Below are positions 2,295 through 17,513 of a stretch of 20,000 nt of DNA, piece after piece. The stretch lies in IMG/VR virus record IMGVR_UViG_3300035668_000001; one strand, written 5' to 3'. Source of the DNA: an uncultured virus (IMG/VR IMGVR_UViG_3300035668_000001) (taxonomy: Duplodnaviria > Heunggongvirae > Uroviricota > Caudoviricetes). Position numbers and translations under genes: made by a program. Positions within the stretch are counted from its first letter, which is position 1. Every line of letters starts with the position of its first letter. Below the pieces are notes generated by a model. It had not been told where the DNA came from, did no database searches, and was given only the letters and a program-made list of their open reading frames with translations.

Positions 2295-2296
2295 AC

Positions 2297-3611: not shown

Positions 3612-3635
3612 CCGTGCGCCGCCCCCGTCTACTGC

Positions 3636-3687
3636 ACAACCCCGTGTACGCTGGCCCCCGCCGGTGGGTGAGCGACCCCGCCCGGCG
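3636..3687 (+). promoter_or_regulatory. promoter-like motif plus AGCGAC-loop hairpin, copy 1
   Basis: ACAAC-CCCG-TG-TACGCT (3636-3652); hairpin 3659-3687 with CGCCGG/CCGGCG outer stem, AGCGAC at 3671-3676. Confidence 0.7.
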
Positions 3688-3714
3688 CCCGATCCGACCG
3701 AGGAAGTGACTGCC

Positions 3715-3840
3715 GTGTCCGACCCGACACGCGAGTGCCCAGACGTGGATGTCCCCGACGATGTCCCTGGCGACGATCCGCGCCCCGACGACGTCGAAGA
3801 CAAGGACCACCCGGCCGCTGCGGACCGCGAGATCAAATGA
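3715..3840 (+). CDS. small acidic hypothetical protein (41 aa)
   Basis: GAGGAAG RBS 3700-3706; stop overlaps next ATG (3837). Confidence 0.5.
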   Translation: MSDPTRECPDVDVPDDVPGDDPRPDDVEDKDHPAAADREIK

Positions 3841-4334
3841 CCGACCCGCGAGTGTCCACTCTGCGTGGCACCCGATGCCCCGAATGCGACGAACGGATCG
3901 ACTACATCGGCGACGGCGTCGAGTCCGTCGACCCGGTCACGTTCCAGCAGATTTTCACGTGCCACCCGTGCGGGCATCGCAGCGACCGGGAGCACGCCTT
4001 GTACGCGCACCACATCGGGATACGGGTACACGTGCCGAAGGTGTCCGCGGCCGCGATCGTCGCCGCCGAGCAGGCGCGGGCCCGCGCGAAGGGCCACTCG
4101 CCGGAAGACGACGCGGCCCTCCCCGACGGGGTCCTGTCGTGGGCGTTGTGGTGCCTGACCGACGCGGCCCGTAAGGACGCGTCGCCGTCCCCGGATCCGC
4201 CGACCGCGTGGCCCGCCGAGCTCGGCCCCGAACGGTGGCCTTCCGCGGAGCCGTCGATCCGCAAGCTCGTCATCGCCCTCGCGTACGGGCTGTCCGAACT
4301 CGACAAGCGGCTAGCTGCGGGGGAGACGCCGTGA
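3837..4334 (+). CDS. phage hypothetical protein with N-terminal Zn ribbon (165 aa)
   Basis: CPEC...CHPC; C-terminal AEQARARAKGHSPEDD...WP...RKLVIALAYGLSELDKR resembles a common phage domain. Confidence 0.75.
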   Translation: MTDPRVSTLRGTRCPECDERIDYIGDGVESVDPVTFQQIFTCHPCGHRSDREHALYAHHIGIRVHVPKVSAAAIVAAEQARARAKGHSPEDDAALPDGVLSWALWCLTDAARKDASPSPDPPTAWPAELGPERWPSAEPSIRKLVIALAYGLSELDKRLAAGETP

Positions 4335-4552
4335 GCTACCCGGGGCCCGCCACCATCACCTTGAACACCACCGACCTGCCCGCCGTCGAGGCGTTGCGGG
4401 GCCTGAGGGCCCGGGTCGTCATCGCCGGCCGCGTCATCGGCACGGTCCTCGTCACCGATGTCACCTCCGGTGACCCGGGTGAAGTGCTGGTCACCTTCGC
4501 GATGCCCGTCCGTACTGTGCACGCCGTCTTCGACACCGAAGGATCGACATGA
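4331..4552 (+). CDS. hypothetical protein (73 aa)
   Basis: GGGGAG RBS; overlaps at both ends. Confidence 0.7.
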   Translation: MSYPGPATITLNTTDLPAVEALRGLRARVVIAGRVIGTVLVTDVTSGDPGEVLVTFAMPVRTVHAVFDTEGST

Positions 4553-5031
4553 CTTACATGGCTGAGGCCCGTGCCCTCCCGGAGCCTGTGTTCGTCGCGT
4601 GCGTTGTCCGCGCCGTCCCCGCATCCGGCCCCCCGTCCGTCCCCGCACCCGGCCTCCCGTCCGTGTCAAGTGACGCCTATGACGTCTGTGAGCGGATGGT
4701 CTTCGCGGCCTTCGACGGCAAGGTCGTCGACTACGTGACCGACGTGACCATCTCGCCGGAGGTCGACGACAGCGACATCTCGTGGTCCCTGGTTCGCAGC
4801 GTTGTACGGCATCCGGTGCGGGAGGTGCAGATGACCCTCGGCATCGACCCGAGGTACGTGGTCGTCACCGACTCGCCGAACGCGCTGTCGACTGTCCTCG
4901 AGTGCGCCATCCTCGAGGACGGCGCACTCGAGGACGACCCGGAAGTGGACGCGCGGCAGCTCGCCGACCGTCTCGTCGCCGCCATCCTCGACCACTTCGT
5001 CCAGCGTGGCGCGCTCCCGGACCCGTCGTGA
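4549..5031 (+). CDS. hypothetical protein (160 aa)
   Basis: GAAGGA RBS; ATGA overlap. Confidence 0.7.
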   Translation: MTYMAEARALPEPVFVACVVRAVPASGPPSVPAPGLPSVSSDAYDVCERMVFAAFDGKVVDYVTDVTISPEVDDSDISWSLVRSVVRHPVREVQMTLGIDPRYVVVTDSPNALSTVLECAILEDGALEDDPEVDARQLADRLVAAILDHFVQRGALPDPS

Positions 5032-5273
5032 TCCCCGTCCGGGTACCCCGCGACATGGCCCCCACCCTCGCCAACGACCGGGTGTGGGATCTCGCGGACA
5101 GACCAGACCAACCGGTTCACGGCACCGAATGCCTGGCGTGCGGACAGCCGATGACCGGCAAGATCGTTCTCGTGTACGTCGGCCGCGAACCGGATGGCCG
5201 GGTCGACGGGTGGACCACCGGGACCGCGGTCCCCGTCCACCAGGCGTGTGCACGCCCCGGGGGGCCGGAGTGA
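5028..5273 (+). CDS. small putative Zn-binding protein (81 aa)
   Basis: GTGA overlap; CLAC...HQAC. Confidence 0.7.
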   Translation: MIPVRVPRDMAPTLANDRVWDLADRPDQPVHGTECLACGQPMTGKIVLVYVGREPDGRVDGWTTGTAVPVHQACARPGGPE

Positions 5274-5677
5274 ACACCCGGCAAGCGTTCGCCCTCGCGC
5301 ACCCGTTGAACCGCGCCATCGGCGACTTGCGCCCGTACCAGCGGGTGCGGGAACACCCCAACGGGCTGCTGATCATGACCGTGCTGGCGGTGGACCGTTG
5401 AAACCGAATCAACGACGGGCTGCCCGTGTGGCACCTGTCGGTGAGCGTCTGGTCCAGGCGCCGAGTGAAACGGAACCGGCCCGCCCTCGCCGAGCGGGAG
5501 GCCGTCAAACTACTCCGCGGCGTCGGCGGCGACCGCGAATGGTGGACGTGGAACGAGGACGTGCTCATCGGCCACTTGCGGGTCGCCGTCACCGCGGACG
5601 AACACGCCCGGATGCCTCCGGGGACCGCGGTCGACGACGCCGGCGACCCGGGCACGGAGAGGGCGCGGACGCCGTGA
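5270..5677 (+). pseudogene. probable single gene interrupted by an in-frame TGA at 5399-5401 (or two small genes)
   Basis: 5270-5401 and 5426-5677 share a frame; reads ...LAVDR*NRINDGLPVWHLSVS...; no good RBS for 5426. Confidence 0.55.
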
Positions 5678-5708
5678 CTGCGAGCCGAACCGGAAGGACA
5701 CCGACGCC

Positions 5709-6134
5709 ATGACCGACAAGTACGCCTACGCCGGCAACTACATCTACACCGGCAACATGCTCGACGTGGAGCCGGCGCCGGTGACGTTCCGGCAGCGGCT
5801 CGCGGACAGGCTGCGCCGCGCCGCGGACTTGGTCGGCCCCGACCCGGTCGACGTCACCGTGACCTTGTCGTTCGACTCGACGGAGTGGAAGTCGGCCGCC
5901 GGCCGGAAAGCTAACCGGGCGCTGCTGCGGTACCGGCTGCGGCTCTACGCCGACACGGCCGGTGTCGGCGTTTTCACCCGCCCGTACGAGACGGTCATCT
6001 GGTCCGCCGGGGCGAGCTGGTCCACCGGGCGGCGCGTCGACCAGGTCGTCACGGAGGGCTCCCCGGAGGCGCGCACCGCGGTGGTCACCTGGACCGCGAA
6101 GGCGCGACCCCTCGCGTGCCCGCCGCGGTCATGA
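5709..6134 (+). CDS. hypothetical protein (141 aa)
   Basis: GGAAGGA RBS upstream of ATG. Confidence 0.75.
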   Translation: MTDKYAYAGNYIYTGNMLDVEPAPVTFRQRLADRLRRAADLVGPDPVDVTVTLSFDSTEWKSAAGRKANRALLRYRLRLYADTAGVGVFTRPYETVIWSAGASWSTGRRVDQVVTEGSPEARTAVVTWTAKARPLACPPRS

Positions 6135-6208
6135 CCCGGGACCGGGCCCCGGTCGACGTGGCGGTGCGCGACGCTGATGCCCCCGGTCCCGCAAACTGCG
6201 GGAGCGAG

Positions 6209-6234
6209 GGTGACGGTGCGGTCGTACCGTCACC
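6209..6234 (+). other. 11-bp hairpin immediately before an RBS (terminator/attenuator-like)
   Basis: GGTGACGGTGC-GGTC-GTACCGTCACC with one G-U pair; no U tract. Confidence 0.55.
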
Positions 6235-6256
6235 ACCCAAGGAAGGTCTGATCCAC

Positions 6257-6547
6257 ATGACCACCACAGAGGTCGAGTGTCGGCGTTCCGCCAGCGCACG
6301 CCTCTGGCGCAGCAACTGGGACTTCCGGGCGCATGTCCGGGGACTCGTCCTCCGGGACCTCCGTGCGATTGCCGCTCGCAACGGCCTCCGCCTGGTCACG
6401 TCCCCGGTCGAAAAGCTCCACTGGTACACGGGTCCGCCGCCGCACGGGCAGCGGACCGAGCCTGACGACATGTTGTTCGCGGTACACGTCGAGATCGTGA
6501 CGCGGGCACACGCCCGCACCTGCACGCCCCCGCCGGCCGCGCCGTGA
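6257..6547 (+). CDS. hypothetical protein (96 aa; alternative start 6131)
   Basis: AAGGAAGG RBS 6239-6246; stop overlaps next GTG. Confidence 0.65.
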   Translation: MTTTEVECRRSASARLWRSNWDFRAHVRGLVLRDLRAIAARNGLRLVTSPVEKLHWYTGPPPHGQRTEPDDMLFAVHVEIVTRAHARTCTPPPAAP

Positions 6548-6924
6548 CCGTCCCCGACCCGGGTCCGGTCGTGGATCTGGCGCGGAAGCTCCAAGAGGCG
6601 GCCCGGGCGCACGGGGACCACCTGTCACCCGTCGTGGCTCGGGACTTGGCCCGCGTCGCCCTCACCTACTCCGACACGGAGGTGACGGGGGACTGGACAG
6701 TCCCGGTGGGGAAGGCGCGGAACGCCGACGAGATCGCGACGGCGTGGGGTTTCGCCGAGGTGATGCTGCTGCGGTCCGCGCACACCCGCGGCCTCGCGGT
6801 CGTGACTCCGTTGCGGCACGCGTACGAGAGGCAACGGGACGGGTCCGTGATCCTCCGGTACACGGCCGGGGCCCGGACAATCATCAAGCCGACACCAGCG
6901 TCGGAAGCGTTGCCACCCGGGTAA
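6544..6924 (+). CDS. hypothetical protein (126 aa)
   Basis: GTGA overlap; TAA stop lies within the downstream promoter motif. Confidence 0.7.
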   Translation: MTVPDPGPVVDLARKLQEAARAHGDHLSPVVARDLARVALTYSDTEVTGDWTVPVGKARNADEIATAWGFAEVMLLRSAHTRGLAVVTPLRHAYERQRDGSVILRYTAGARTIIKPTPASEALPPG

Positions 6925-6972
6925 ACCGCGTGTATGTTTGTGGGTGAGGCGGACAGCGACTCCGCCGAACCC
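6910..6972 (+). promoter_or_regulatory. sigmaA/HrdB-like promoter plus AGCGAC-loop hairpin, copy 2
   Basis: TTGCCA(6910-6915)-N17-TATGTT(6933-6938); GGCGGA-CAGCGAC-TCCGCC (6948-6966) with outer GGGT/ACCC. Confidence 0.85.
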
Positions 6973-6996
6973 GACAACCGATCCGAGATGATCCCC

Positions 6997-7461
6997 ATGT
7001 CCACAGCGACCCCGTCGCCCGTCGGAACCACCTACACGCAGCACAGGACCGGCACAGAATGTTTCCGGCCTTTCGTCGACACCACGACCTGGACCCATCC
7101 CGTCGTCGTGCTCGGCGCCGCCGACGTCAACCTCCTCATCGCGTTCGCGGAACTCACCTGGCACCCGGTCACCACTTGGGGTGACCTCGGGGCGTCCGCC
7201 GAAGCGGCACCGGCGTCGAAGGTCGGCGAGATCTGCGCCGCCGTCGAGACGGCCTGCGACGCCCGCGGGGTCGACATGGCCCGCGCCGAGATCGTCACCG
7301 ATGGGGAGTACGACGCGATGCGGGACCACCGGCCGCTGCTGTTCGACACGTCCGGTGGCCGCGCCGCCCGCAACCACCGCCTCGTACCGCACCTGATGCA
7401 CCCACGGGAGCGTGACGACGCCGGCCATGTCGTACCCCACGGGTACGTTCTGATCGGATGA
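6997..7461 (+). CDS. hypothetical protein (about 154 aa; alternative start 6988)
   Basis: First long ORF after promoter copy 2; protein-like composition. Confidence 0.7.
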   Translation: MSTATPSPVGTTYTQHRTGTECFRPFVDTTTWTHPVVVLGAADVNLLIAFAELTWHPVTTWGDLGASAEAAPASKVGEICAAVETACDARGVDMARAEIVTDGEYDAMRDHRPLLFDTSGGRAARNHRLVPHLMHPRERDDAGHVVPHGYVLIG

Positions 7462-7498
7462 ACCCCGCCACCTTCCGCTCCGCGACGAAAGAACCCCG

Positions 7499-7861
7499 AT
7501 GACGGCCACCCCTGGCGCCCCCGTGACCTTGACGCTCGACCCGCGCCTCGCCGAAGCGCTGTCCGGGGAGGCGTGTGCAGCCAGCCTCTACTTCGAGTAC
7601 CCGGACCAGTTCGAGTACCTACGCCAGACCGATGACCTGGGCGACCCGGTGTTCCGCGAGGGCACCATGCGGTGGTGCGACACGGCCGCCGACGCCGTTC
7701 TGCTGCACGCCTTCCAACTGGCGGCCGGGCATCGCGCGGTACTCCTGTGGGACCTGGACCGGTCCCTGCAAAACATTGACGAGGGCCGCTCCTTGGCCTG
7801 CCACATCGTCCTGTCGACCGACCCGTGGCCCTACAAGGACGACGTGGAACCGTCCGGGTAA
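7499..7861 (+). CDS. hypothetical protein (120 aa)
   Basis: GAAAG upstream; protein-like composition. Confidence 0.75.
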   Translation: MTATPGAPVTLTLDPRLAEALSGEACAASLYFEYPDQFEYLRQTDDLGDPVFREGTMRWCDTAADAVLLHAFQLAAGHRAVLLWDLDRSLQNIDEGRSLACHIVLSTDPWPYKDDVEPSG

Positions 7862-7866
7862 ACCAG

Positions 7867-7929
7867 TGGACCCCGGGGGTAAACCCCCTGTACGATTAAG
7901 GGTGGCCGGTCAGCGACACCGGCGCACCC
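7867..7929 (+). promoter_or_regulatory. promoter plus AGCGAC-loop hairpin, copy 3
   Basis: TGGACC-N18-TACGAT(7891-7896); GGGTG-GCCGGT-CAGCGAC-ACCGGC-G-CACCC (7900-7929). Confidence 0.85.
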
Positions 7930-7952
7930 GAACCCGATGAAGGAGCCCCGTC

Positions 7953-8315
7953 ATGGCCCATACCCGCAGCTCGATCCTCGAGGTGTACCGGGACGCGTAC
8001 CGCCCCTTGCTCGACGGGATCACCCGCGAGGGTTTCGACGGGGTAGACGTCGTAGCCGTCGGCGGCTACGACGTGCTGATCCACATCCCTCTCGGTGCGC
8101 GCGACGTCCTCATGGGCGACAACCTGCGCGGCGCCCTCCCGGCCGACCCTGGCGCCTTGGCGTTCCTCGAGCCCGTCCTGTACTCCACGGGGTCGCTCGA
8201 CGCCGAGCGCGCCGGCCCCTCCGAGCTGTTCGACCGCGACCACTTGCCCGAGCTCGCGGCGTGGATCAAGACGCAGGTCACGATCGCCGAGTCCACGGAC
8301 GTCCTCACCGCATAA
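7953..8315 (+). CDS. hypothetical acidic protein (120 aa)
   Basis: AAGGAG RBS; directly after promoter copy 3. Confidence 0.8.
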   Translation: MAHTRSSILEVYRDAYRPLLDGITREGFDGVDVVAVGGYDVLIHIPLGARDVLMGDNLRGALPADPGALAFLEPVLYSTGSLDAERAGPSELFDRDHLPELAAWIKTQVTIAESTDVLTA

Positions 8316-8320
8316 CCCCC

Positions 8321-8374
8321 GGGAGGGGGCGCCTGCCGCCGTTGCCGCCGGCGCGCCCCCTCCCCACCGCTTTA
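8321..8374 (+). terminator. putative intrinsic terminator
   Basis: Perfect 12-bp inverted repeat GGGAGGGGGCGC(8321-8332)/GCGCCCCCTCCC(8353-8364) just after a stop; weak T tract. Confidence 0.6.
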
Positions 8375-8394
8375 CAGCCCCGGAAGGGGACGAC

Positions 8395-8796
8395 ATGCAG
8401 GCATCCGTAAACATCGTCCGTGTCGCCCAAGGCGCGGCCCGACAGCACATGCACCCCGTCACCCCGCCCCGCACGATGTGCTACCTCGAAGGCGTCGAGC
8501 AGGCGTGCCGGTGGGCGGTAGGGGATCGCACCGGCGCCACCATCTGGCGGATCCTCGAACCTGCCGGATTGCCGACACGCACCACTGCGCGCCGCGCCGC
8601 CCGCGCCGACAAGCAGATCGCCGCGGCCAGCGAAGCGGCCCGCACGAATGCCGCCAACACGCGCGGCCCGTCGAGTGCCCTCTCGATCGCGTGCGGCATC
8701 GCCGACGCCCTCCGGTGGATCTCCGACGGCAAGGTGACCCCGGACATGCGGCAAGTCCTCGACCGGGTCCCCGAGCTCACGGGGAGTACCCGGTGA
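8395..8796 (+). CDS. hypothetical protein (133 aa)
   Basis: GAAGGGGA RBS; two YLEGVEQACRW / ACGIADALRW-like helices. Confidence 0.7.
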   Translation: MQASVNIVRVAQGAARQHMHPVTPPRTMCYLEGVEQACRWAVGDRTGATIWRILEPAGLPTRTTARRAARADKQIAAASEAARTNAANTRGPSSALSIACGIADALRWISDGKVTPDMRQVLDRVPELTGSTR

Positions 8797-9008
8797 GCTA
8801 CCACGCTTGGGCGGCGACGCTGCCCCTCTGGTTGGTCCTGCTCCTCGGTGTCGCCGGGATCGCCGGTGTCATCGGCGGAATTCTCCGCGGCAGCCTCGTC
8901 GGCATAGCCATCGGCGGTGTCGTCTTCGGCCTCGTCGTCTCCTTCTTGGGCGGTGTCGACGCGTTCTTCACCGCGCTGCGCATCGCCACCGCCGGATGGA
9001 CCGGGTAA
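8793..9008 (+). CDS. small membrane protein (71 aa, about 2 TM helices)
   Basis: GGGGAG RBS; GTGA overlap; long hydrophobic Gly-rich segments. Confidence 0.75.
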   Translation: MSYHAWAATLPLWLVLLLGVAGIAGVIGGILRGSLVGIAIGGVVFGLVVSFLGGVDAFFTALRIATAGWTG

Positions 9009-9101
9009 CCGTCTACGGCCCCCAAGAGTCCACCGCCCCGGTGTACGTGGCCCTGCCCGACCACCGACCCCCGCGACACAAGCCGTGACGAATCTCCACG
9101 A

Positions 9102-9121
9102 TGCCCAGAGCGACCTGGACA
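9102..9121 (+). promoter_or_regulatory. AGCGAC-loop hairpin, copy 4 (short stem)
   Basis: TG-c-CCAG-AGCGAC-CTGG-a-CA, 5 nt before GAGGAGG RBS. Confidence 0.6.
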
Positions 9122-9139
9122 GCCCCGAGGAGGACCCCG

Positions 9140-9973
9140 ATGGAAGACCAACCCCCGAGCACGCCGGACCTCGTGTCACTGTCTCTGGGAGGCGGCGTCC
9201 AGTCGAGCGCGTTGCTGCTCATGTCCTGCCGCGGCGACTTGCCGAAACCTGACGTGGCGATCTTCGCCGACACCGAAGGGGAAAGCGGGGCCACGTACCG
9301 GTACCTCGCGGACGTGCTCGAACCCGCCGCGCGCGAGGCGGGGATCCCGTTGGTGCGCGTGGGCAAAGGACCCCTGGCCCATGACGCCCTCACCTTGTCG
9401 AGGAGTCGGCCGTCGTTGCCGTACAAGACGCTGAGCCGTGACGGGGAACCCGGCTACATGGCTCACCGCGACTGCACCAGGGCTTACAAGACGCGCCCGA
9501 TCGACGCCGAGATCCGCCGGCGTCTCGGCGGGTCCACGCGGAAGAAGACGGTCGAGACGTGGCTCGGCATCAGCACCGACGAGATCGGCCGCATGAAGCA
9601 GAGCCGCCACCGGTGGCAGCGGCTGGTGTACCCGCTGATCGACCTCCGCATGAGCCGGGCGGACTGCAAGCGGTGGGTCGTCGACCACGGCTACCCGCCG
9701 GCGCCCCGGTCCGCGTGCGTGTTCTGCCCGAACCATTCCGACTCCTACTGGCGGGCGATGCGGGACGGCGACCCGGAGACGTGGGCGCAGGTCGTCGCGT
9801 TCGACGCGGCCGCACGGAACGCCCTCCCGCACATGGACAGCGAAGTGTTCCTCCACGCCCAACGTGTCCCACTCTCCCAAGTCGACCTCGCGACGCCGCA
9901 AGAGAGAGGCCAACTGGGGCTGTTCGGGGACGACGAACAGTGCGCCGACGCCTCCGGGGCCTGCTTCCTGTGA
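9140..9973 (+). CDS. PAPS reductase-family (PP-loop, adenine nucleotide alpha-hydrolase) phage protein (277 aa)
   Basis: SLGGGVQSSAL PP-loop variant, IFADTEGE, CTRAYK, LGISTDE, YPLID, SACVFCP, C-terminal CADASGAC; GAGGAGG RBS. Confidence 0.85.
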   Translation: MEDQPPSTPDLVSLSLGGGVQSSALLLMSCRGDLPKPDVAIFADTEGESGATYRYLADVLEPAAREAGIPLVRVGKGPLAHDALTLSRSRPSLPYKTLSRDGEPGYMAHRDCTRAYKTRPIDAEIRRRLGGSTRKKTVETWLGISTDEIGRMKQSRHRWQRLVYPLIDLRMSRADCKRWVVDHGYPPAPRSACVFCPNHSDSYWRAMRDGDPETWAQVVAFDAAARNALPHMDSEVFLHAQRVPLSQVDLATPQERGQLGLFGDDEQCADASGACFL

Positions 9974-9988
9974 CGTCCGCTCGAGCCG

Positions 9989-10020
9989 CAAGTACTGCCC
10001 TGAGCGACCAGGGCACCTTG
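9989..10020 (+). promoter_or_regulatory. AGCGAC-loop hairpin, copy 5
   Basis: Perfect TGCCCTG-AGCGAC-CAGGGCA (9996-10015) with outer CAAG/CTTG; followed by GAAGGAAGGA RBS. Confidence 0.8.
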
Positions 10021-10037
10021 GAAGGAAGGACTCCCCG

Positions 10038-10523: not shown

Positions 10524-11938
10524 CCACCGCAGCCAGTCCCGCGCATCTCATCCAAGGCAACGCCCTCGCGCTGCCATTGGCCGACGCGTCCGTCGACTTG
10601 GTCGTCACATCTCCGCCGTACTTCGGGCTCCGGTCCTACAAGGACGGCGGCGAGCACTACGTCGGGCAGATCGGAGCCGAGGCCACGCCGGGCGAGTTCG
10701 TGGATGCGCTGGTCGCCGCGACGCGGGAGATGGTGCGGGTCCTCAAGCCCGCCGGGTCGATCTTCGTCAACCTCGGCGACAAGTATTCGATGCGTGACGG
10801 TCAAGGCGGGCCTCAGGGACCGACGGGTCTGCGCGGGACACGTCGGCAGGCCGCGACCTACGTCCGACAGTCCGGACGGGAGTTCGGCGCTCCCTTGAAG
10901 TCTCTCGTCGGCATCCCGTGGCGGTACGCACTGCGCTGCATCGACGACCTCGGGCTGATCCTCCGCGCCGAGATCCTGTGGTCCAAGCCGAACGGGCTCC
11001 CCGAATCGGTCACCGACCGAGTCCGCCGCTCACACGAGACGTGGTTCCACTTCGTCAAACAGCCCCGCTACTACTCCGCCGTAGACGAGATCCGAGAGGC
11101 GCACATCGGGGGTGCCCACCCTGGACTGGAAACCCGCCACGAACGCAGCGGCGGCGTCCTCGCCCCCACGCGATCCAACGTAACCGTCAACCCGCTCGGG
11201 AAGCTCCCCGGATCGGTGTGGGAGATCCCCACGCAGCCGTTGAACATCCCGGACCACATCGCCCACAGCCGGTGCTGCAACGGCCGGAAACGGGCTGGCT
11301 GCGAGGACGGCATCGACCACTACGCGGCGTTCCCGATGGAGTGGCCGCGTCGCATCATCCGCGGCTGGTCCCCGAACGGCGTGTGCACCGCGTGCAGTGA
11401 AGAACGGCGCCCGGTCCCGGCCCGGTACCAGGTCGACCGGTCACGGCCGCAGGCCCGGCGCGCGCTCGCGCTTGTCGAACAGCACGGGCTGACAGATGAC
11501 CACATTGCCGCCGTGCGCTCGGTCGGCGTGTCCGACACCGGCCGCGGCGCGGCGACACAATCCGGCACTGGTAAAAACACGTCAGAGGTGTACGCGCTCG
11601 CGGAGGTGGCCCGCGCCGCGCTCGGCGGGTACGCCCGCGAGTTCCTGCTGCAACGCCCTACCGGTCTCGACTACGCGTGCTCGTGCTCGGAGCCGACTGC
11701 ACCGACCCGTCCGGCCGTGGTGCTGGACCCGTTTGGGGGCACCGGCACAACGGCCCTCGTCGCGAAGGTTCTGGGCCGTACCGGCATCTCCGTGGACATG
11801 TCCGCGGACTACGGCAACGTCGTCGCCCGGTGGCGGGTCGACGACCCGGATCAGATCGCCGCTGCCATGCAGATCCCCCGGAACAAGACGCGGGACGCGG
11901 GCACCGACCAACTCGACATGTTCGGGGAGTCGGCATGA
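10520..11938 (+). CDS. site-specific DNA methyltransferase, beta class (N4-C/N6-A) (472 aa)
   Basis: Motif IV VTSPPY near N-terminus, motif I VLDPFGGTGTT near C-terminus, HYAAFP; GGAGG RBS. Confidence 0.95.
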   Translation: MTTAASPAHLIQGNALALPLADASVDLVVTSPPYFGLRSYKDGGEHYVGQIGAEATPGEFVDALVAATREMVRVLKPAGSIFVNLGDKYSMRDGQGGPQGPTGLRGTRRQAATYVRQSGREFGAPLKSLVGIPWRYALRCIDDLGLILRAEILWSKPNGLPESVTDRVRRSHETWFHFVKQPRYYSAVDEIREAHIGGAHPGLETRHERSGGVLAPTRSNVTVNPLGKLPGSVWEIPTQPLNIPDHIAHSRCCNGRKRAGCEDGIDHYAAFPMEWPRRIIRGWSPNGVCTACSEERRPVPARYQVDRSRPQARRALALVEQHGLTDDHIAAVRSVGVSDTGRGAATQSGTGKNTSEVYALAEVARAALGGYAREFLLQRPTGLDYACSCSEPTAPTRPAVVLDPFGGTGTTALVAKVLGRTGISVDMSADYGNVVARWRVDDPDQIAAAMQIPRNKTRDAGTDQLDMFGESA

Positions 11939-12564
11939 CCACCGCGCTCGAGCACGTCCTCGGCGTGCTCGGCGAAGACCTGGGCCTAGTAGTCGACGAC
12001 GACGGCGGCATGCTCCCCTCAGGGTTCGCCGCGTTCGACCACGCCCGCCGGTACCGGTACCTCCTCGCCCGCACATGGGACGGCGACCTGGACCCCGCGG
12101 TGTGGCTCATGTGCAACCCGTCGACCGCCGACGCCTTCGTCCTCGACGCCACCCTCCGCCGCTGCCGCGCCTTTTCGCACACGTGGGGCCACGGCGGCAT
12201 GGTCATCCTCAACGCGTTCGCGTTCCGCGCCACCCAACCCGACGACATGAAAGCCCAGCCCGACCCGGTCGGCCCGGTGAACGACGCGGTCATCGCCGTC
12301 ACCGCCGCGGGGTTGCCCGGTGCGCCGTGGATCGTCGGCTGGGGCGCGAACGGCGGGCATTTGGGCCGGGACCGGCAGGTTGCTGCCATCCTCGCCGGGT
12401 ACGAGCTGTCCCCGTCCATGCTCGCGGTCACGAAAGACGGTCACCCCGGTCACCCGCTACGGCTCCGCGCCGACGCGAAGCCGACCCCGTGGAATCTGCC
12501 CAATGCCGTGTATGGTGCGTCATGCGGGGACCGTAGCGACCGGTCTCCCGACCCGAAGCCCTGA
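11935..12564 (+). CDS. DUF1643 domain protein (209 aa)
   Basis: YRYLLARTW, MCNPSTAD...DATLRRC, NAFAFRATQP, GWG, TKDGHPGHPL. Confidence 0.92.
   Translation: MTTALEHVLGVLGEDLGLVVDDDGGMLPSGFAAFDHARRYRYLLARTWDGDLDPAVWLMCNPSTADAFVLDATLRRCRAFSHTWGHGGMVILNAFAFRATQPDDMKAQPDPVGPVNDAVIAVTAAGLPGAPWIVGWGANGGHLGRDRQVAAILAGYELSPSMLAVTKDGHPGHPLRLRADAKPTPWNLPNAVYGASCGDRSDRSPDPKP
12500..12550 (+). promoter_or_regulatory. promoter-like motif plus AGCGAC-loop hairpin, copy 6
   Basis: CCAAT-GCCG-TG-TATGGT (12500-12516); CGGGGACCG-TAGCGAC-CGGTC(T)CCCG (12525-12550). Confidence 0.75.
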
Positions 12565-12580
12565 AAGGGGCGTGGTATCC

Positions 12581-12703
12581 GTGTCCGAACCGAAGATGGC
12601 CCTCCCACCGATCCCGCCTGCGCCCGCCCCGGCGCCGGCCCCGGAACGGCGGCTCCTCCCCGAGCTTGTCTACATCAAGCGAGCCCGCCGGAGCGTGCCG
12701 TGA
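12581..12703 (+). CDS. small Pro-rich hypothetical protein (40 aa)
   Basis: AAAGGGG upstream; stop overlaps next start. Confidence 0.45.
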   Translation: MSEPKMALPPIPPAPAPAPAPERRLLPELVYIKRARRSVP

Positions 12704-12969
12704 TGCGGTACCGCGGCTATGACGGCGACTACGACGAGTCCGATGACGGGTACGACACCGGCAAGCCCGGTAGGGCGCCGGCGGGGCGGCCGTCGAAGAA
12801 GAGGCGGAAGGACAACCAGAGGGCCCTCGTTGTCGTTGCTGTCGTCATCGCGCTCGCGCTCGTGTACGGCGTCCGCAACTGGGATGCCGCCAAGCCTGTC
12901 CTCAAGAACGTCGGGCACCTCATCGTCTGCAACTTGCAGAACAACTGCCCGACGGGGACTGTCCGGTGA
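12700..12969 (+). CDS. small single-pass membrane protein (89 aa)
   Basis: Basic KKRRK followed by ALVVVAVVIALALVYGV. Confidence 0.7.
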   Translation: MMRYRGYDGDYDESDDGYDTGKPGRAPAGRPSKKRRKDNQRALVVVAVVIALALVYGVRNWDAAKPVLKNVGHLIVCNLQNNCPTGTVR

Positions 12970-13652
12970 CCGCCTCGATGCCGGGCAGGACACCGGCGGT
13001 GACCACCGATGACGACGGCCAGTACTGGCGCGAGAAGGCGACCGAGCTCCAAGACGAGGTCGACTACTGGCGCGAGGCGCACCACGAACTCGAGCGCTAT
13101 CTCGCCGCCTTGTCGGGGGGCGACGCGCCGGTAGGCCACCCCGTGAGCGCGGCGAAGGTCCGGTACCTGTGGACGCCGACCGTCGACGCCTCGGCTGCGT
13201 GCTACGAGTGCGGGACATCCGCAGATACGTGCGGTGCGCGGGCGGCTGACGAGCGCGTCTTCGGCTACTGCTGCCAGGCGTGCTGGTGGTACCGCCCCCG
13301 GTTCGCCCACCGTGCTGCCGAGGCGTCCCTGGTGACCGCGCCGCGCGAGAAGGTGTCCGCGTACCAGATCGGCGGCGACCTCTGGCCGGGCCTCGGCAAG
13401 GTCATCGAGGAGTCGGGCGAGCTGGCTCAGGTGGCCGGGAAGCTCATCGCCAACAGCGGCGAGCGCAGCCACTGGGACGGCACCGACCTGCACGACCGGC
13501 TGATCGAGGAGCTGGGTGACGTCCTCGCTGCGATCGACTTCCTGATCGAGGCGAACGGCCTTCACGCCGCTGCCGTCCGTCAGCGCGCCGACAACAAGCT
13601 CACGCTGTTCCGGCGCTGGCACCGTGGCGCACCGGATGGGATGTCCCGGTGA
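12966..13652 (+). CDS. MazG-like nucleotide pyrophosphohydrolase with N-terminal Cys-rich extension (228 aa)
   Basis: KVIEESGELAQ...LIEELGDVLAAI (EExxE...EExxD all-alpha NTP-PPase pattern); CYEC/CCQAC upstream. Confidence 0.8.
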   Translation: MTASMPGRTPAVTTDDDGQYWREKATELQDEVDYWREAHHELERYLAALSGGDAPVGHPVSAAKVRYLWTPTVDASAACYECGTSADTCGARAADERVFGYCCQACWWYRPRFAHRAAEASLVTAPREKVSAYQIGGDLWPGLGKVIEESGELAQVAGKLIANSGERSHWDGTDLHDRLIEELGDVLAAIDFLIEANGLHAAAVRQRADNKLTLFRRWHRGAPDGMSR

Positions 13653-13939
13653 GCGACCTGGTCCCCTCTGACCGCATCGAGGCCATCGTCGGCGTCAGCC
13701 GACACCCCTCGGAGCACTGGGGGCGTGCGGTCTCGGCAGAGCAGACGGTCTACATCCTCCACTCGGCGGCCTGCCGGGACTCCGGCATCGACCTGCGTGA
13801 CTGCGACTACTCGATCGCGCTCGACAACGGCATCAACGACCTGAGCGACTGGATCGGCCGCGAGGACACCCCGGTCCAGCTCTCGATCTGCTACGGCTGG
13901 CTGATTCCGGTCGACCGTGACCCCGAGGTGTCTCGGTGA
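13649..13939 (+). CDS. hypothetical phage protein (96 aa)
   Basis: GTGA overlaps at both ends. Confidence 0.75.
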   Translation: MSDLVPSDRIEAIVGVSRHPSEHWGRAVSAEQTVYILHSAACRDSGIDLRDCDYSIALDNGINDLSDWIGREDTPVQLSICYGWLIPVDRDPEVSR

Positions 13940-14478
13940 CGGCGCCGACGCCGGACGACGAGGCCGCCGGGATGTGCCCGAACTGTGTGACGCCGTGGAA
14001 GTGCAACGGCCCTCATGAGCCGGCCACCGCGCCGGCGCCGGCCACGCCGGCGACCACTGGTTTCCCGGCACCCGGGGAGCGGACCGACCTGCGGCGGATC
14101 TCGCGAGACGCCCGTTGGGATGACGATCGGCTCGGCTGGATGAAGCGCTTGGAGTTCTTGATCGAGGAGCTGGCTCCCTTGGTGGCTGCCCGTGAGGCGG
14201 CGGCCTACGCCCGTGGTCGCGACGAGGAGATCCGCTGCACCTGCCTGGGTGAGTGGGACACCCGGTGTCGCCTGCACGGCCACCCCGCGATGCGCGCCAT
14301 GCGTGCCGAGGTGGCGGCGGCCGAGAGGGCGCGCAAGCAGCACGCTGACCTGTTGGCGATCCTGGCCGACGAGTGGGCAGACGACCCCGCGGGCGCCAGG
14401 GACTGGGCGCGGGCGTACCGGGCCGCCCGCGCTGCTGCTGCGGCCCCCGACACCACCCCCGAAGGAGAGCAGCGATGA
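13936..14478 (+). CDS. hypothetical protein with CPNC-C-H and C-C-C-H motifs (180 aa)
   Basis: GAGGTG RBS; CPNCVTPWKCNGPH. Confidence 0.75.
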   Translation: MTAPTPDDEAAGMCPNCVTPWKCNGPHEPATAPAPATPATTGFPAPGERTDLRRISRDARWDDDRLGWMKRLEFLIEELAPLVAAREAAAYARGRDEEIRCTCLGEWDTRCRLHGHPAMRAMRAEVAAAERARKQHADLLAILADEWADDPAGARDWARAYRAARAAAAAPDTTPEGEQR

Positions 14479-14657
14479 GCAAGGGCCAGGAGGTGTGCGT
14501 GGCGTGCCTGTGCACCGAGGAAGCCCACGGCGACGAAAGCGGCCACGGCCGGGCTTGCCCCCATGAGTGCTCGGGATGGTTCATCTACGAGGACCCGGAA
14601 CGCTGCCCCTGCTGTGACTGGGTGCTTCCCGGCTGCCGCCTGGATGGTGTCGTATGA
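14475..14657 (+). CDS. small Cys-rich protein (60 aa)
   Basis: AAGGAG RBS; ATGA overlaps; 9 Cys. Confidence 0.7.
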   Translation: MSKGQEVCVACLCTEEAHGDESGHGRACPHECSGWFIYEDPERCPCCDWVLPGCRLDGVV

Positions 14658-15043
14658 CGGGCCCGTCGTCGCCGGACCCGGCCACGCCGCAGTGGACGTG
14701 GACCGACGAAGCGCGCGAGGCGGCGTACCGGGCATCGGCGCGGGCGTGCGGCCGCGACTACCCGAACGCGGCTGATGTCACGGTCGGGCGTGCCGTTGGG
14801 GAAGCGCTGGCCCCGCACGCGGCCCGGCAGGTCGCGGACCTCGCGGTCGACCGGGACAGGTGGATGAACCTCGCCCAGCGGGCGTTCATGGAGGTCGCCG
14901 GGTACCTCGCCCGCGCTGCCGCGTCGACCGGCACCACCCCCGAGGCCGAGCCCGTCACGAAGGCGTGGGACGACGGCTACCGCGCCGGGGTCCGCGTCGG
15001 CCTCGACGCCTCCGCCGAGCGAGACTCCGGTGGCGCCGGGTGA
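14654..15043 (+). CDS. hypothetical protein (129 aa)
   Basis: Coupled overlaps; AWDDGYRAG motif common in phage proteins. Confidence 0.7.
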   Translation: MTGPSSPDPATPQWTWTDEAREAAYRASARACGRDYPNAADVTVGRAVGEALAPHAARQVADLAVDRDRWMNLAQRAFMEVAGYLARAAASTGTTPEAEPVTKAWDDGYRAGVRVGLDASAERDSGGAG

Positions 15044-15393
15044 CCACCATCGGGCAGCGGATCGTAGACCGGCGCGGCAATCGCACCCAGCAGTGGCTGG
15101 CCGGCCGGGTCGGTGTCACACAAGTCGCCGTGTCGTACTGGGAAACCGACCAACGTGTGCCCGAACTCCAAATGGTCGCCAAGCTCGCCGACGCGCTCCG
15201 CTGTGACCCCGGGTGGCTGGCGTTCGGGAACCATGCGCACACCGAACGGGGCGTTGCTTTGACGCGGACCGTCCTCTACGTCACCGACTGCGATTGGGGC
15301 GGCTGCGGCGCCCCTGCCGTCGCAGTCCGCTGGGACGAGGACCACGAAGGCTTCTTGCCCGTGTGCGACCGCCACACCGGTGAAGCCCCGTGA
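15040..15393 (+). CDS. XRE-family HTH regulator with C-terminal Zn-ribbon-like motif (117 aa)
   Basis: TQQWLAGRVGVTQVAVSYWETDQRVP...KLADALRCDPGWL; CDWGGC...CDRH. Confidence 0.88.
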   Translation: MTTIGQRIVDRRGNRTQQWLAGRVGVTQVAVSYWETDQRVPELQMVAKLADALRCDPGWLAFGNHAHTERGVALTRTVLYVTDCDWGGCGAPAVAVRWDEDHEGFLPVCDRHTGEAP

Positions 15394-15803
15394 ACAACGA
15401 GGAGGCGTGGAAGGACATGAGCGCGGCCGCGGACAAGCTGCGCGCCGGAGACACAGACGTACCGCCGCGGCTTGCCGAACCGATCGCCGGGTGGATGCTC
15501 GGCGCCGCCGAAGTGGTCCGTTCGAAATGGTGCCCGACGGTGGACCGCCGCGCCGGATGTTGGGTGTTCGCCCGCCTGGTCCTCGACGGGCCGGCCGAGC
15601 CTGCGGGAAGCCCGTTGACGCCGGACGAGGTGACGGCCGCGGAATGGCGCGGCGCCGAATGGGAACGCAACCGGATGCGGGAGGCGATGGAGGACACGTT
15701 CCCCGACAGCACACCCACGACGCGGGCCGTGCTGCGCCTGGTCGGCCCACCCCGCTCGTCCCGCCTCCGCCTCCTCCAAGGCGGGCAGGGCGGTGCCACG
15801 TGA
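15390..15803 (+). CDS. hypothetical protein (137 aa)
   Basis: GTGA overlap; ends LRLLQGG, a motif common in phage proteins. Confidence 0.65.
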   Translation: MNNEEAWKDMSAAADKLRAGDTDVPPRLAEPIAGWMLGAAEVVRSKWCPTVDRRAGCWVFARLVLDGPAEPAGSPLTPDEVTAAEWRGAEWERNRMREAMEDTFPDSTPTTRAVLRLVGPPRSSRLRLLQGGQGGAT

Positions 15804-15877
15804 CCGCGGCCAGGCGACTCGTGCCGTGCGGCCCCATCGGCGGCGTCGAGACGCGACCCAAAGAGAAGGAGAAACTC

Positions 15878-16276
15878 GTGACCGGCCGCCGCCGCAAGAA
15901 GGACCGGGAACAGTTCCGGGCGGTCGTCGCTGCGCGACGGAACGACGCGCGTCGCCGCGCGGGCCCGCCGACGCCGGCGCGGATCACCCTCGCACTGGAC
16001 CTCGCCGGTCTTGACGGCCCGCAGGTCGACGTCGCCTGCGGTGGGGTCGAGCCGATGGTCGACGAGTGGGAGGCGGGCACCCGCGTCCCCACCGACGCCC
16101 AGATCAAGGCCCTGGCCCGGTTGACGGGCATGACCGTCGACTCCTTCTACCTGCCCGCGCCCGATCCGATGGCCGGCTGGGTCTGCCAGCGGTCGGGCCC
16201 CGGCAAGGGATGCACCCACCTCGACACCCGCCCGGATGCTCCCGTCGTCCCTATCGTGAAGGAAGCCCTGTGGTGA
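15878..16276 (+). CDS. XRE-like HTH protein with Arg-rich N-terminus (132 aa; alternative start 15800)
   Basis: AAGGAG RBS 15866-15871; VDEWEAGTRVPTDAQIKALARLTG. Confidence 0.75.
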   Translation: MTGRRRKKDREQFRAVVAARRNDARRRAGPPTPARITLALDLAGLDGPQVDVACGGVEPMVDEWEAGTRVPTDAQIKALARLTGMTVDSFYLPAPDPMAGWVCQRSGPGKGCTHLDTRPDAPVVPIVKEALW

Positions 16277-16806
16277 CCCGCCGCATGATCACCAACACTG
16301 TGTCCGCCGCCGTGAAGCCTTGGCCGGTCGACTGCTACATCCAAGGCGGCCGCCGCGGGTTCGTGTTCCGCGACAAGGGCGCCCACTACGTCACCCCGTT
16401 CTTCTTCGAGGCGTTCCCCACCGACCCGCAGACGTTCCTCCGCGGGGAGGGCGACACGATGGAGGCCGCCGAAGCGCAGGCGTGGAAGCGGTGGGAGCGG
16501 GTCACCGCCTGCCCGGGACACGAGTACGAGGCGCGCGGCTACACCAACGGGCTCGGGTTCTGCCGCCACTGCGGCATGTCCAAGTCGGGTGCGTTCACCG
16601 CCGAGCAGCTCGGCCTGCACTGCGCCGCGTGCGGCGTCCCCGCGAACTACGCCCGGGAGGGCGACGACTTCTACTGCACGGAACACAACCCGCGCCGCGC
16701 CGAACACGAGCGGATGATGCGGCAGCTCGAGGAGCCCGTCGACGAGGACGAACTACGCGCGGACCTCACGGCCATCCTCGGCCGGATGGGGAAGACCGAT
16801 GGTTGA
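16273..16806 (+). CDS. hypothetical Cys-rich protein (177 aa)
   Basis: AAGGAAG RBS; FFEAFP...FLRGEG, CPGH, CRHC, CAAC, CTEH. Confidence 0.75.
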   Translation: MTRRMITNTVSAAVKPWPVDCYIQGGRRGFVFRDKGAHYVTPFFFEAFPTDPQTFLRGEGDTMEAAEAQAWKRWERVTACPGHEYEARGYTNGLGFCRHCGMSKSGAFTAEQLGLHCAACGVPANYAREGDDFYCTEHNPRRAEHERMMRQLEEPVDEDELRADLTAILGRMGKTDG

Positions 16807-17233
16807 GGACCCGATGGACTTCGGCCCCGTGCAGCACGTTCTCCGCGCCGCCCCGCCGTGGCGCCGCCACCCCGTCCTCACCGAGTGCGGGAACAAGATC
16901 AGGGAACCGGAGCGGCTCATCACCCGGGAGCAGCTCGCCGCGCGGGTCCGCAAACTCGGACAGAAGCGGGCCGCGTACTCGACGTGCATCACCTGCTGGG
17001 AAGCCGCGAAGGACCACCGAGGCTGGGACGTCGACCCGGCCTCGGTCATCGCCCGCGACGTGAGGTACCGCAACCGTTGGGGGTACGAGGACGACGACCC
17101 GATGAACCGGGAGTTCCGCGCCCTCGCCGCCCTCGTAGAGGCCCACCTCGAGGAGTGGGACGAACTCGTCACCGGCCTTGACCAGACCGTGTCCCTCGAC
17201 GCGCGTAGGCGGGAGGCGAGACGCCGTGGCTGA
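16799..17233 (+). CDS. hypothetical protein (144 aa)
   Basis: 8-bp overlap; HVLR, TECG, TCITC. Confidence 0.75.
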   Translation: MVEDPMDFGPVQHVLRAAPPWRRHPVLTECGNKIREPERLITREQLAARVRKLGQKRAAYSTCITCWEAAKDHRGWDVDPASVIARDVRYRNRWGYEDDDPMNREFRALAALVEAHLEEWDELVTGLDQTVSLDARRREARRRG

Positions 17234-17471
17234 CTGCCCGTCCACCGTCCACGAAGGCGCGCCCGTGCGGGCCGTGGCCCCCGGCAGGTTCACGAATCCG
17301 TGGAACCGCTCCATCGACGTCGACGTCGTCTACTGCGCCGACTGCGCGTACTGGATGCGCTGGTACGGGTTCTTCACCCCCACTGTCCGCACCGGCCGTC
17401 TCATGCGCTTCGGCCACCATCACGACGACTTCACCCCGACCCGCCGACCGACACACTTCCAGCGGCCATAA
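17226..17471 (+). CDS. hypothetical protein (81 aa)
   Basis: GGGAGG RBS; CADC; TAA stop lies within the promoter motif. Confidence 0.65.
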   Translation: MADCPSTVHEGAPVRAVAPGRFTNPWNRSIDVDVVYCADCAYWMRWYGFFTPTVRTGRLMRFGHHHDDFTPTRRPTHFQRP

Positions 17472-17513
17472 ACGCCGTGTACGTTCATGGGTGGGGGAGC
17501 GACCCCCCGACCC
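17457..17513 (+). promoter_or_regulatory. promoter plus AGCGAC-loop hairpin, copy 7 (upstream of dnaB)
   Basis: TTCCAG-N17-TACGTT(17480-17485); GGGT-GGGGG-AGCGAC-CCCCC-G-ACCC (17489-17513). Confidence 0.8.

Follow-up and report, generated by a model that had tools for sequence, protein, structure and literature searches.

The DNA stretch analyzed here, hereafter the window, comprises 20,000 nt of an uncultured Caudoviricetes virus (IMG/VR record IMGVR_UViG_3300035668_000001), and its + strand carries seven hairpins that display the hexamer AGCGAC in their loops. The arrangement of sequence elements around these sites marks the AGCGAC hairpin as the leader part of an expression signal that recurs along the phage genome, usually as a predicted host-type promoter followed by a short leader predicted to fold. 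Two distantly related uncultured soil phages set this signal before most of their protein-coding messages but not before their tRNA genes. With moderate confidence, we favor the reading that the hairpin presents AGCGAC to a factor setting the stability or translation of phage messages. An initial annotation of the window had treated the hairpins as free-standing units; instead, they form the leader of a predicted sigma70-type promoter in five of the seven window copies and in 31 of 45 copies found in a distantly related phage.

AGCGAC is present at all seven + strand positions first proposed (3671, 6955, 7912, 9109, 10003, 12535, and 17498), and every site folds with the hexamer in the loop and with the stems as originally listed. 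Loops span 6–9 nt, stems 4–11 bp, and stem plus loop 19–31 nt. Minimum free energies range from −5.5 to −19.1 kcal/mol, with z-scores from −1.8 to −3.7 against 200 dinucleotide shuffles; the weakest folds are those at 9109, with an inner stem of 4 bp (z −1.78), and 3671 (z −1.98). As a word, AGCGAC is not enriched in the window (15 occurrences versus 19.6 expected; 13 of the 15 on the + strand). As the loop of a hairpin with at least 5 bp, it occurs seven times on the + strand and never on the − strand, a count that takes in an intragenic site at 1542 that is not a family member and leaves out 9109 with its 4-bp stem. The shuffle control that might have overturned the family gave a mean of 0.92 such hairpins in 1000 dinucleotide shuffles, only one of which reached seven, and the 63 AGCGAC-loop hairpins in 3.42 Mb of actinobacterial strand sequence predict about 0.7 for the window. 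Nevertheless, the hairpin count alone is not decisive, because the scan, which covered all 4096 hexamers, also gave TCGGCG eight hairpin-loop occurrences on the − strand. The decisive evidence for a real family is the intergenic placement of the word: 6 of the 13 + strand occurrences lie wholly within intergenic DNA, which makes up 788 of 18,870 nt (4.2%; binomial P = 7e-6). The seventh family site, 12535, reaches into a gene over no more than its final 30 nt.

The arms differ in all seven window copies, and the only invariant sequence is AGCGAC, together with a preceding G in 4/7. Among three copies of identical geometry, pairing is preserved in 18/18 cells, and 5/6 pairs are changed on both sides. 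In an arm-swap permutation, own arms formed 6.14 bp compared with 3.02 bp for swapped arms, a value reached by 10 of 10,000 permutations, which upholds the earlier claim of covarying stems beneath a fixed loop. Selection on a single-stranded structure had also been proposed, and an element that is strand-specific, covarying, and conserved in a relative fits that proposal better than a double-stranded DNA operator. No U-tract or T-run was found after the hairpins, which makes intrinsic termination by them unlikely. An Rfam search of the whole window returned no match at the gathering score and none at E ≤ 1 with permissive filters, consistent with an element outside the described Rfam families. 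No AGCGAC-loop leader or promoter of this kind was found described in the literature covered, a comparison that stopped short of the phiC31 early promoters and conserved inverted repeats.

Five sites (3671, 6955, 7912, 12535, and 17498) belong to full modules, and those at 9109 and 10003 are hairpin-only copies inside operons (Table 1). A full module comprises a −10-like GTGTAyGnT block, often a TAAAC box, the hairpin, a Shine–Dalgarno sequence (SD), and a start codon. The block contains a TAnnnT hexamer, which is the actinobacterial −10 type, and sits 12–18 nt upstream of AGCGAC in the five modules; in three copies the TAAAC box precedes it by 4 nt. All four exact GTGTAyGnT matches in the window, as well as a one-mismatch copy at 7888, precede an AGCGAC hairpin, so that all five −10-like blocks have the hexamer downstream. 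The composite pattern of these elements occurs three times in the window, in 0/200 shuffles, and in 0/401 same-class actinobacterial genomes (~1.7 Gb). When the whole window was passed to a generic sigma70 scanner, the single match was module 2, TTGCCA-17-TATGTT. The module hairpin has a conserved base, GGGTG/CACCC, beneath a covarying middle and the AGCGAC loop. The CCCGA tails noted earlier do follow 5/7 sites; their description is now refined, as the first CCC belongs to the hairpin, the GGGTG at the stem base pairing with the (C)ACCC that opens the tail. The distance from AGCGAC to the start codon, initially given as 20–30 nt, measures 25–40 nt. In three modules, the TAA of TAAAC is the stop codon of the upstream gene (6922–6924, 7859–7861, and 17469–17471) in a genome of 70% G+C; this double use fuses the promoter element with the gene end.

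Relatives were sought by scanning IMG/VR with the composite pattern, which gave 32 loci, mostly single chance matches. Three contigs of 78–89 kb and 66.5% G+C stood out by carrying several one-strand copies each; they represent the same phage (they differ by one base within the 20-kb stretches retrieved around the match) and are 62–74% complete. Proteins common to this phage and the window are limited to SSB (60% identity), DnaB (57%), and Ro/TROVE (47%), plus one weak match. The pattern TAAAY-N3-TGTA-N8-45-AGCGAC matched 13, 16, and 23 times in the three contigs and not at all in the reversed control; 51 of the 52 matches lie on one strand, and the single exception precedes AGGAG and ATG on its own strand. 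A 19-base module signature was found at 39 loci across all IMG/VR, each in these three contigs. With duplicates removed, the relative holds 31 promoter-linked copies, and among its 117 other AGCGAC sites are 14 promoter-less copies, each followed by an SD and a start codon, bearing out the expectation that relatives would carry the element.

The relative's promoter consensus is cccTTGACc-N8-CGCTAAATG-NN-TGTA-NNN-T, a plainly sigma70-type prediction (TTGACc-N18-TAyNNT); in a 20-kb piece of this genome, 3/4 predictions of the generic scanner coincide with modules. A typical hairpin there, GTGTTGG-AG-AGCGA-CCAACAC, begins 4–7 nt past the −10 hexamer and ends 1–12 nt before AGGAG and ATG; AGCGAC itself stands about 18–30 nt upstream of the start codon. 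Both phages use ordinary SDs of the GGAG type. From the end of the −10 hexamer to AGCGAC, the spacing of 12–18 nt in the window widens to 2–39 nt (mode 13) in the relative, where a longer stretch, GTGTTGgAGAGCGAC, is conserved. Own arms again pair better than swapped ones (4.58 versus 3.52 bp; 0/10,000 permutations). Of 37 promoter boxes located independently of AGCGAC, 31 have the exact word within 60 nt; the remaining six leaders showed no one-letter loop variant on visual reading, without a formal scan. One such AGCGAC-less promoter box, at about 8684 (−) on the contig G406, lies directly upstream of tRNA-Val (8580–8651) in a 38-tRNA array, and another lies ~310 nt upstream of the relative's Ro gene (L382:12444–14246, +). 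These two cases suggest that the promoter can work without the leader and that the leader accompanies protein-coding messages, while the promoter-less copies, which number 2 in the window and 14 in the relative and invariably precede an SD, suggest that the leader can stand without a promoter. Copies also adjoin capsid and portal genes and run throughout 89 kb of the relative. Hence, the signal is not early-specific, contrary to what had been supposed from the window.

These observations would fit the following course of events. Transcription starts ~7 nt downstream of a −10 hexamer, and the stem begins 4–10 nt after it in most copies; the predicted start thus falls at the stem. Host RNA polymerase would initiate ~7 nt after the TAyNNT hexamer, at the stem foot as placed by promoter geometry, and the nascent RNA would fold into a 5′-proximal hairpin that leaves the SD free. 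The invariant AGCGA(C) would then be displayed single-stranded on the 3′ side of the 6–9 nt loop, 11–40 nt ahead of an ordinary SD and start codon, and promoter-less copies would hold the same position before internal cistrons. It is established that 5′-proximal hairpins protect mRNA from 5′-end-dependent decay, and the leader hairpin may block such decay in cis. The loop itself would serve as a docking site for a phage or host factor, most likely a protein, governing message stability or translation. That the loop is read by something is suggested by six letters that stay constant in 7 window and 45 relative copies while the window arms all differ. The loop register also shifts, with 0–3 additional nucleotides on the 5′ side of AGCGA and the final C paired in some copies; together with the variable −10 distance, this suggests a displayed single-stranded word rather than a rigid DNA site. 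Formation of the structure in RNA rather than DNA, binding at the loop, the start site, and the direction of the effect are inferences.

A doubtful extension is a cap-like "self" tag, in which the loop shared by nearly all protein-coding messages, and not by tRNAs, would let one dedicated factor tell phage from host mRNAs. If so, phage messages would be spared from, or preferentially translated during, phage-induced decay of host mRNA. The factor could be phage-encoded, and Ro/TROVE, one of the three clearly shared proteins, is a candidate.

Several results weigh against the leader interpretation. When three copies were used to build a covariance model of the 23-nt hairpin, the remaining true copies scored 9–15 bits, mixed with ~60 noise matches, and the model was rejected as a search tool; the hairpin alone thus fails to separate true copies from noise. 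Interruptions among 228 Watson–Crick pairs comprise 4 G.T, 3 A.C, and 4 others. The conserved outer pairs GGGT/ACCC reach 1–3 nt upstream of the predicted start in several copies and would be partly outside the RNA unless initiation occurs unusually close to the −10 hexamer. In the relative, stems of at least 5 bp occur at 15/32 module sites compared with 23/117 non-module sites and 9% of 1162 background sites; AGCGA lies in the minimum-energy loop at 14/32, 21/117, and 115/1162, respectively. Moreover, 4/31 relative modules lack a stem of at least 3 bp under the geometry used, and a sequence-level DNA site is possible there because the 5′ arm GTGTTGG is itself conserved. Promoter activity and transcription starts are predictions for both phages, and no candidate loop-binding protein emerged.

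A purely structural 5′ stabilizer or insulator, which would block exonucleases or attenuate upstream read-through with no trans partner and with a loop kept for folding or by copying between modules, is an unlikely full account. The position at the predicted 5′ end suits it, 5′-terminal stem-loops of the ompA, aprE, and ermC leaders are established mRNA stabilizers, and GCGA could form a stable GNRA-type loop. A precedent for joining sigma70 promoters and stem-loops in many copies exists in the PeSL cassettes (PMC2839356). Folding needs alone would, however, permit other GNRA or stable loops, whereas the loop is identical in 7/7 window copies with all arms different and in 31/37 promoter leaders of the relative; the variable loop length and AGCGA register also fit recognition of a displayed sequence better. 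Processive antitermination of the nut/boxB type, in which the nascent hairpin would load an N-like or NusG-type factor on RNA polymerase so that units resist Rho and intrinsic terminators, likewise seems unlikely. It would draw on the hairpin's place just downstream of the promoter (5/7 and 31/45 copies), on the GCGA of the loop as a GNRA-type tetraloop sequence, boxB loops adopting GNRA-like folds, on terminator-like hairpins within the gene chain such as 8321–8364, and on a C-rich linear CCCGA tail accompanying the hairpin as boxA accompanies boxB. That tail follows 5/7 window copies yet is absent from the relative, leaving no conserved boxA-like partner; there are dozens of copies per genome rather than the two of lambdoid phages; promoter-less copies stand directly before internal cistrons; and the relative's hairpin abuts the SD by 1–12 nt, a closeness superfluous for antitermination. 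Neither an arginine-rich N-like protein (among 42 window proteins) nor a NusG/KOW protein was found, both genomes being incomplete.

Recognition at the DNA level, with AGCGAC and its flanks bound by a phage regulator as a duplex (stoperator) or as a non-template-strand hairpin (ops/RfaH-like), is improbable as the explanation. In its favor, the counts of G.U versus A.C do not favor RNA, the conserved outer pairs reach beyond the predicted start on its upstream side, the longer stretch GTGTTGgAGAGCGAC is conserved in the relative, and regulators are encoded in both phages, a helix-turn-helix (HTH) protein in the window (15040–15393) and a GntR protein in the relative. The distribution, with a single copy at each promoter or gap and one orientation to transcription, also recalls stoperators (PMC3203893, in part). 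By contrast, the 6–7 invariant nt of the window are too few for a specific duplex site, arms that are fully different yet complementary would be useless to a duplex-binding protein, and the absence from the tRNA promoter is odd for a general transcriptional operator. The 2–39 nt spacing from the −10 hexamer is hard to square with a DNA-bound factor touching RNA polymerase, and a stem plus loop of 19–31 nt exceeds the exposed non-template strand of a transcription bubble. Lastly, a compositional artifact of high-GC DNA has practically no probability left: the unenriched word, the second hexamer with eight hairpin-loop occurrences, and the noisy hairpin-only model would suit it, but it is already refuted by the composite pattern (3 in the window, 0/200 shuffles, and 0/401 genomes), the intergenic placement, and the 45 further copies in the relative, where all 39 IMG/VR loci of the signature fall and reversed controls give 0.

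Among described systems, the closest is the promoter-early stem-loop (PeSL) cassette of the T4-type phages RB49 and phi1 (Arbiol et al. 2010, PMC2839356). As far as the published account covered here goes, both are compact intergenic cassettes present in dozens of copies per genome, with the order stop codon, strong sigma70-like promoter, GC-rich stem-loop, SD, and start, and PeSL cassettes often precede small genes of unassigned function. The sigma70-type promoter is shared, as predicted for module 2 (TTGCCA-17-TATGTT) and for the relative (TTGACc-N18-TAyNNT). The PeSL stem-loop, however, lies mostly between or over the −35/−10 boxes or upstream, terminating upstream transcription, whereas the present stem lies, in most copies, 4–10 nt downstream of the −10 hexamer at the predicted start, so that it would be transcribed as a leader, and no T-run follows it. 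In the same portion of that account, no conserved loop is reported for PeSL, in contrast with the invariant loop, covarying arms, and promoter-less copies found here; the hosts here are also high-GC Actinomycetota.

Start-associated sequences (SAS) and extended SAS (ESAS) of Cluster K mycobacteriophages (Pope et al. 2011, PMC3203893) and Cluster EF/EC Microbacterium phages (PMC7302621) are similarly actinophage-specific, multi-copy, oriented motifs in unusually large gaps just upstream of start codons. SAS is conserved across subclusters before unrelated genes, and a host or phage factor has been proposed. According to the relevant parts of these papers, the 13 bp of SAS form an asymmetric motif that coincides with the ribosome-binding site, a few nt from the start codon; the present copies instead have an ordinary SD and, 11–40 nt upstream, the invariant word; ESAS conserves its arms (a 17-bp inverted repeat) and varies its spacer, whereas here the loop is conserved and the arms vary with compensatory changes. 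The ESAS authors found little support for an mRNA hairpin, and in those parts of both papers promoter linkage is not described for SAS. Stoperators of Cluster A mycobacteriophages are likewise many asymmetric sites in short intergenic spaces with one orientation (PMC3203893, in part). They differ in being 13–14 bp duplex sites for an immunity repressor that need no inverted repeat; in the window lineage only 6–7 nt are invariant and the flanks covary, while the relative conserves a longer stretch.

The analogy to lambda boxB/N drawn initially fits poorly. Both are small leader RNA hairpins with a variable stem and a purine-rich, GNRA-like loop through which the lambda nut element is read. Nevertheless, a lambdoid genome has two sites, compared with at least 7 per 20 kb here and at least 45 in the relative; the boxB loop has 5 nt on a stem of ~5 bp, a pentaloop geometry absent from the 6–9 nt loops here; no common boxA-like partner accompanies the copies; and they are tied to ribosome-binding sites. 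The second analogy, T7 RNase III sites, falls short in size, as such sites need at least some 20 bp of duplex, frequently interrupted by an internal loop, which is far longer than stems of 4–11 bp. The 5′-terminal stabilizers of bacterial and phage mRNAs (ompA, aprE, ermC, and SP82 leaders) are single cases and are not known to share a loop sequence, unlike the genome-wide family described here.

The window covers a replication and small-gene region of a phage or prophage, and copy counts given for it refer to these 20 kb. Its sequence occurs in one soil-metagenome DNA run, probably from the source sample. Gene calls based on third-position GC and start-codon analysis give ~42 small, mostly overlapping + strand genes across 1–18,930, followed by a convergent − strand gene (Table 1). 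The GTG of module 7 opens a 14-codon open reading frame (ORF; 17540–17584) that has a good SD and ends in a stop codon overlapping the GTG start of DnaB (GTGA). DnaB itself lacks an SD, which makes translational coupling to this leader peptide probable. Modules 1 and 6 likewise precede short ORFs, of 41 and 40 codons. No other intergenic gap contains a family member, and two further hairpins lie outside the family. The one at 8321–8364, following the single-gene unit 7953–8315, is predicted to bound the transcription unit begun at module 3; the downstream genes 8395–9088 have no recognizable promoter and would need read-through or an unseen promoter. The other, between the convergent genes, is likely a bidirectional terminator closing the + strand gene chain, as modeled from its fold. 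The window DnaB shares up to 74% identity with chromosomal DnaB of uncultured Actinomycetota, Acidothermaceae, Cryptosporangium, and Frankiaceae, a sequence likeness that hints at host range or gene origin.

Table 1. Features of the AGCGAC modules and of the surrounding genes in the window (folding energies with z-scores from dinucleotide shuffles)
Feature	Position	Strand	Details
Module 1 −10-like block	3644–3652	+	GTGTACGCT; exact GTGTAYGNT; hexamer TACGCT 3647–3652; within composite match 3644–3676
Module 1 hairpin	3659–3687	+	GGTGGG 3663–3668 / CCCGCC 3677–3682; loop TGAGCGAC 3669–3676; −17.8 kcal/mol, z −1.98
Module 1 downstream		+	CCCGATCCGACCGA 3688–3701; SD about 3701–3704; GTG 3715 (41-aa ORF 3715–3840)
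Module 2 predicted promoter	6910–6938	+	TTGCCA 6910–6915; 17-nt spacer with TAAAC 6922–6926; TATGTT 6933–6938
Module 2 −10-like block	6930–6938	+	GTGTATGTT, exact; upstream gene 6544–6924 ends in the TAA of TAAAC
Module 2 hairpin	6942–6972	+	outer GGGT/ACCC; GGCGGA 6948–6953 / TCCGCC 6961–6966; loop CAGCGAC 6954–6960; −17.8 kcal/mol, z −3.74; 0/200 shuffles as stable
Module 2 downstream		+	tail CCCGACAACCGATCCGA 6970–6986; ATG 6997 (or 6988)
Module 3 predicted promoter region	7859–7896	+	TAAAC 7859 (TAA = stop of gene 7499–7861) and again 7880
Module 3 boxes		+	−35-like TGGACC 7867–7872 (best −35 match, 18-nt spacer); −10-like CTGTACGAT 7888–7896
Module 3 hairpin	7900–7929	+	outer GGGTG/CACCC, one bulge; GCCGGT 7905–7910 / ACCGGC 7918–7923; loop CAGCGAC 7911–7917; −19.1 kcal/mol, z −3.10
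Module 3 downstream		+	tail CCCGAACCCGA 7927–7937; SD AAGGAG; ATG 7953
Hairpin-only copy 9109	9102–9121	+	CCAG 9105–9108 / CTGG 9115–9118; loop AGCGAC 9109–9114; −5.5 kcal/mol, z −1.78 (weakest member); in 51-nt gap 9089–9139
Copy 9109 downstream		+	SD GAGGAGG; ATG 9140 (PAPS-reductase-like gene); GTGTAyGnT block absent upstream
Hairpin-only copy 10003	9996–10015	+	TGCCCTG / CAGGGCA; loop AGCGAC 10003–10008; −12.6 kcal/mol, z −3.74, 0/200 shuffles; in 64-nt gap 9974–10037; no GTGTAyGnT block; SD GGAAGGAAGGA; ATG 10038
Module 6 −10-like block	12508–12516	+	GTGTATGGT; exact match; within 3′ end of DUF1643 gene
Module 6 hairpin	12525–12550	+	GGGGACCG 12526–12533 / CGGTCTCC 12541–12548 (one G.U); loop TAGCGAC 12534–12540; −15.1 kcal/mol, z −2.30
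Module 6 downstream		+	tail CCCGACCCGA 12547–12556; GTG 12581 (40-aa ORF)
Module 7 predicted promoter part	17469–17485	+	TAAAC (TAA = stop of gene 17226–17471); −10-like GTGTACGTT 17477–17485
Module 7 hairpin	17489–17513	+	GGGTGGGGG / CCCCCGACCC; loop AGCGAC 17498–17503; −16.4 kcal/mol, z −2.56
Module 7 downstream		+	tail CCCGACCCCCGA 17506–17517; SD GGAGG; GTG 17540
SSB	2297–2797	+	
Terminator-like GC-rich hairpin	8321–8364	+	not a family member; fold of 79-nt gap 8316–8394, −46.1 kcal/mol for the stretch
PAPS-reductase-like protein	9140–9973	+	
N6/N4 DNA methylase	10520–11938	+	
DUF1643 gene	11935–12564	+	Pfam
MazG-like protein	12966–13652	+	
HTH regulator	15040–15393	+	
DnaB	17581–18930	+	
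Long hairpin	18931–19042		not a family member; between convergent DnaB (+) and Ro/TROVE (−); fold −73.5 kcal/mol
Ro/TROVE (Ro60-like) RNA-binding protein	19043–19999	−	

The relative encodes capsid, portal, clamp, Ro/TROVE, a GntR regulator, and 38 tRNAs; no RNA polymerase, sigma, or NusG-like protein was detectable in it by Pfam, and an Rfam search matched nothing but tRNAs. An array of about 37 one-strand tRNA genes with interspersed small ORFs spans L376 (G406 7272–20000) and L377:648–720. Two promoter-less AGCGAC hairpins begin about 5 and 36 nt past a tRNA 3′ end (near G406 9982 and 10758), where tRNA processing could create a hairpin-proximal 5′ end. Three other promoter-less copies (G406 − strand near 75355, 69761, and 68798; L379) are preceded by a second conserved hairpin, GCGCCGG-TTCAnGA-CCGGCG, and then GGGGCA. 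Although this hairpin resembles a T-arm and acceptor end, neither ARAGORN nor Rfam calls a tRNA there; it may act alongside the leader hairpin as a signal for processing or termination. The stretch between the AGCGAC-less promoter and the Ro gene holds a tRNA T-arm-like sequence, GGTTCGACTCC, which may suit a YrlA-type Y RNA, and Rfam gave no match for a Y RNA beside this gene. Across L378:6153–9946 (−), L382:18048–18467, and L379:15703–16377, the relative also encodes a 7-deazaguanine pathway that probably serves DNA modification (GTP cyclohydrolase I, a radical-SAM QueE-like enzyme, and QueC), an RNA-repair-type HAD domain, and two NUDIX hydrolases, which could act as RNA pyrophosphohydrolases.

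Wider searches added little to the family. A metagenome scan with at least 117 loci yielded a 630-nt fragment of the relative phage (L326) and a copy at a contig edge (L265:10001–10040; 64% G+C), consisting of TGTACGAT followed by GGGTGT-T-AGCGAC-C-ACACCC, 340 nt from the end. Lying beside ordinary bacterial genes, the latter could be the prophage edge of a third lineage or a chance match. A loose database pattern gave at least 119 loci with one match each, judged to be chance, and a strict pattern with fixed 3-nt spacing gave two matches in IMG/VR, both chance (51–55% GC, single copy). L359, L365, and L351 were rejected as members, having one pattern match each in the whole record. Loci from DnaB-based searches proved to be unrelated phages (viral contigs at ≤46% identity) or, in genomes, host chromosomal dnaB-ssb loci, and they served only as a background set. 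No near relative of the window was found among 50,697 phage records. A DnaB search with a two-phage alignment recovered three contigs (L423, L426, and L429; 53–65% identity) whose retrieved stretches contain neither AGCGAC modules nor a comparable AT-containing repeat, and MT835675 (DnaB 57%) has no modules. Consequently, the module family is rare in the collections searched.

Phages are known to carry repeated motifs tied to promoters or starts, such as PeSL, SAS/ESAS, and stoperators, but how these work is mostly unsolved. The present module offers an unusually clean anatomy, in which a predicted host-type promoter leads to a hairpin where the 5′ end is predicted, with six invariant loop letters above covarying arms; it is attached to mRNAs but not to a tRNA transcript, and it is conserved between phages whose shared proteins are only 47–60% identical. 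Its significance would be lower should the hairpin prove to be a generic stabilizer only. The module could reveal a factor with which phages of high-GC soil hosts or genomes govern what becomes of all their messages, and as a compact unit of promoter and leader it would be of use for expression in Actinomycetota.

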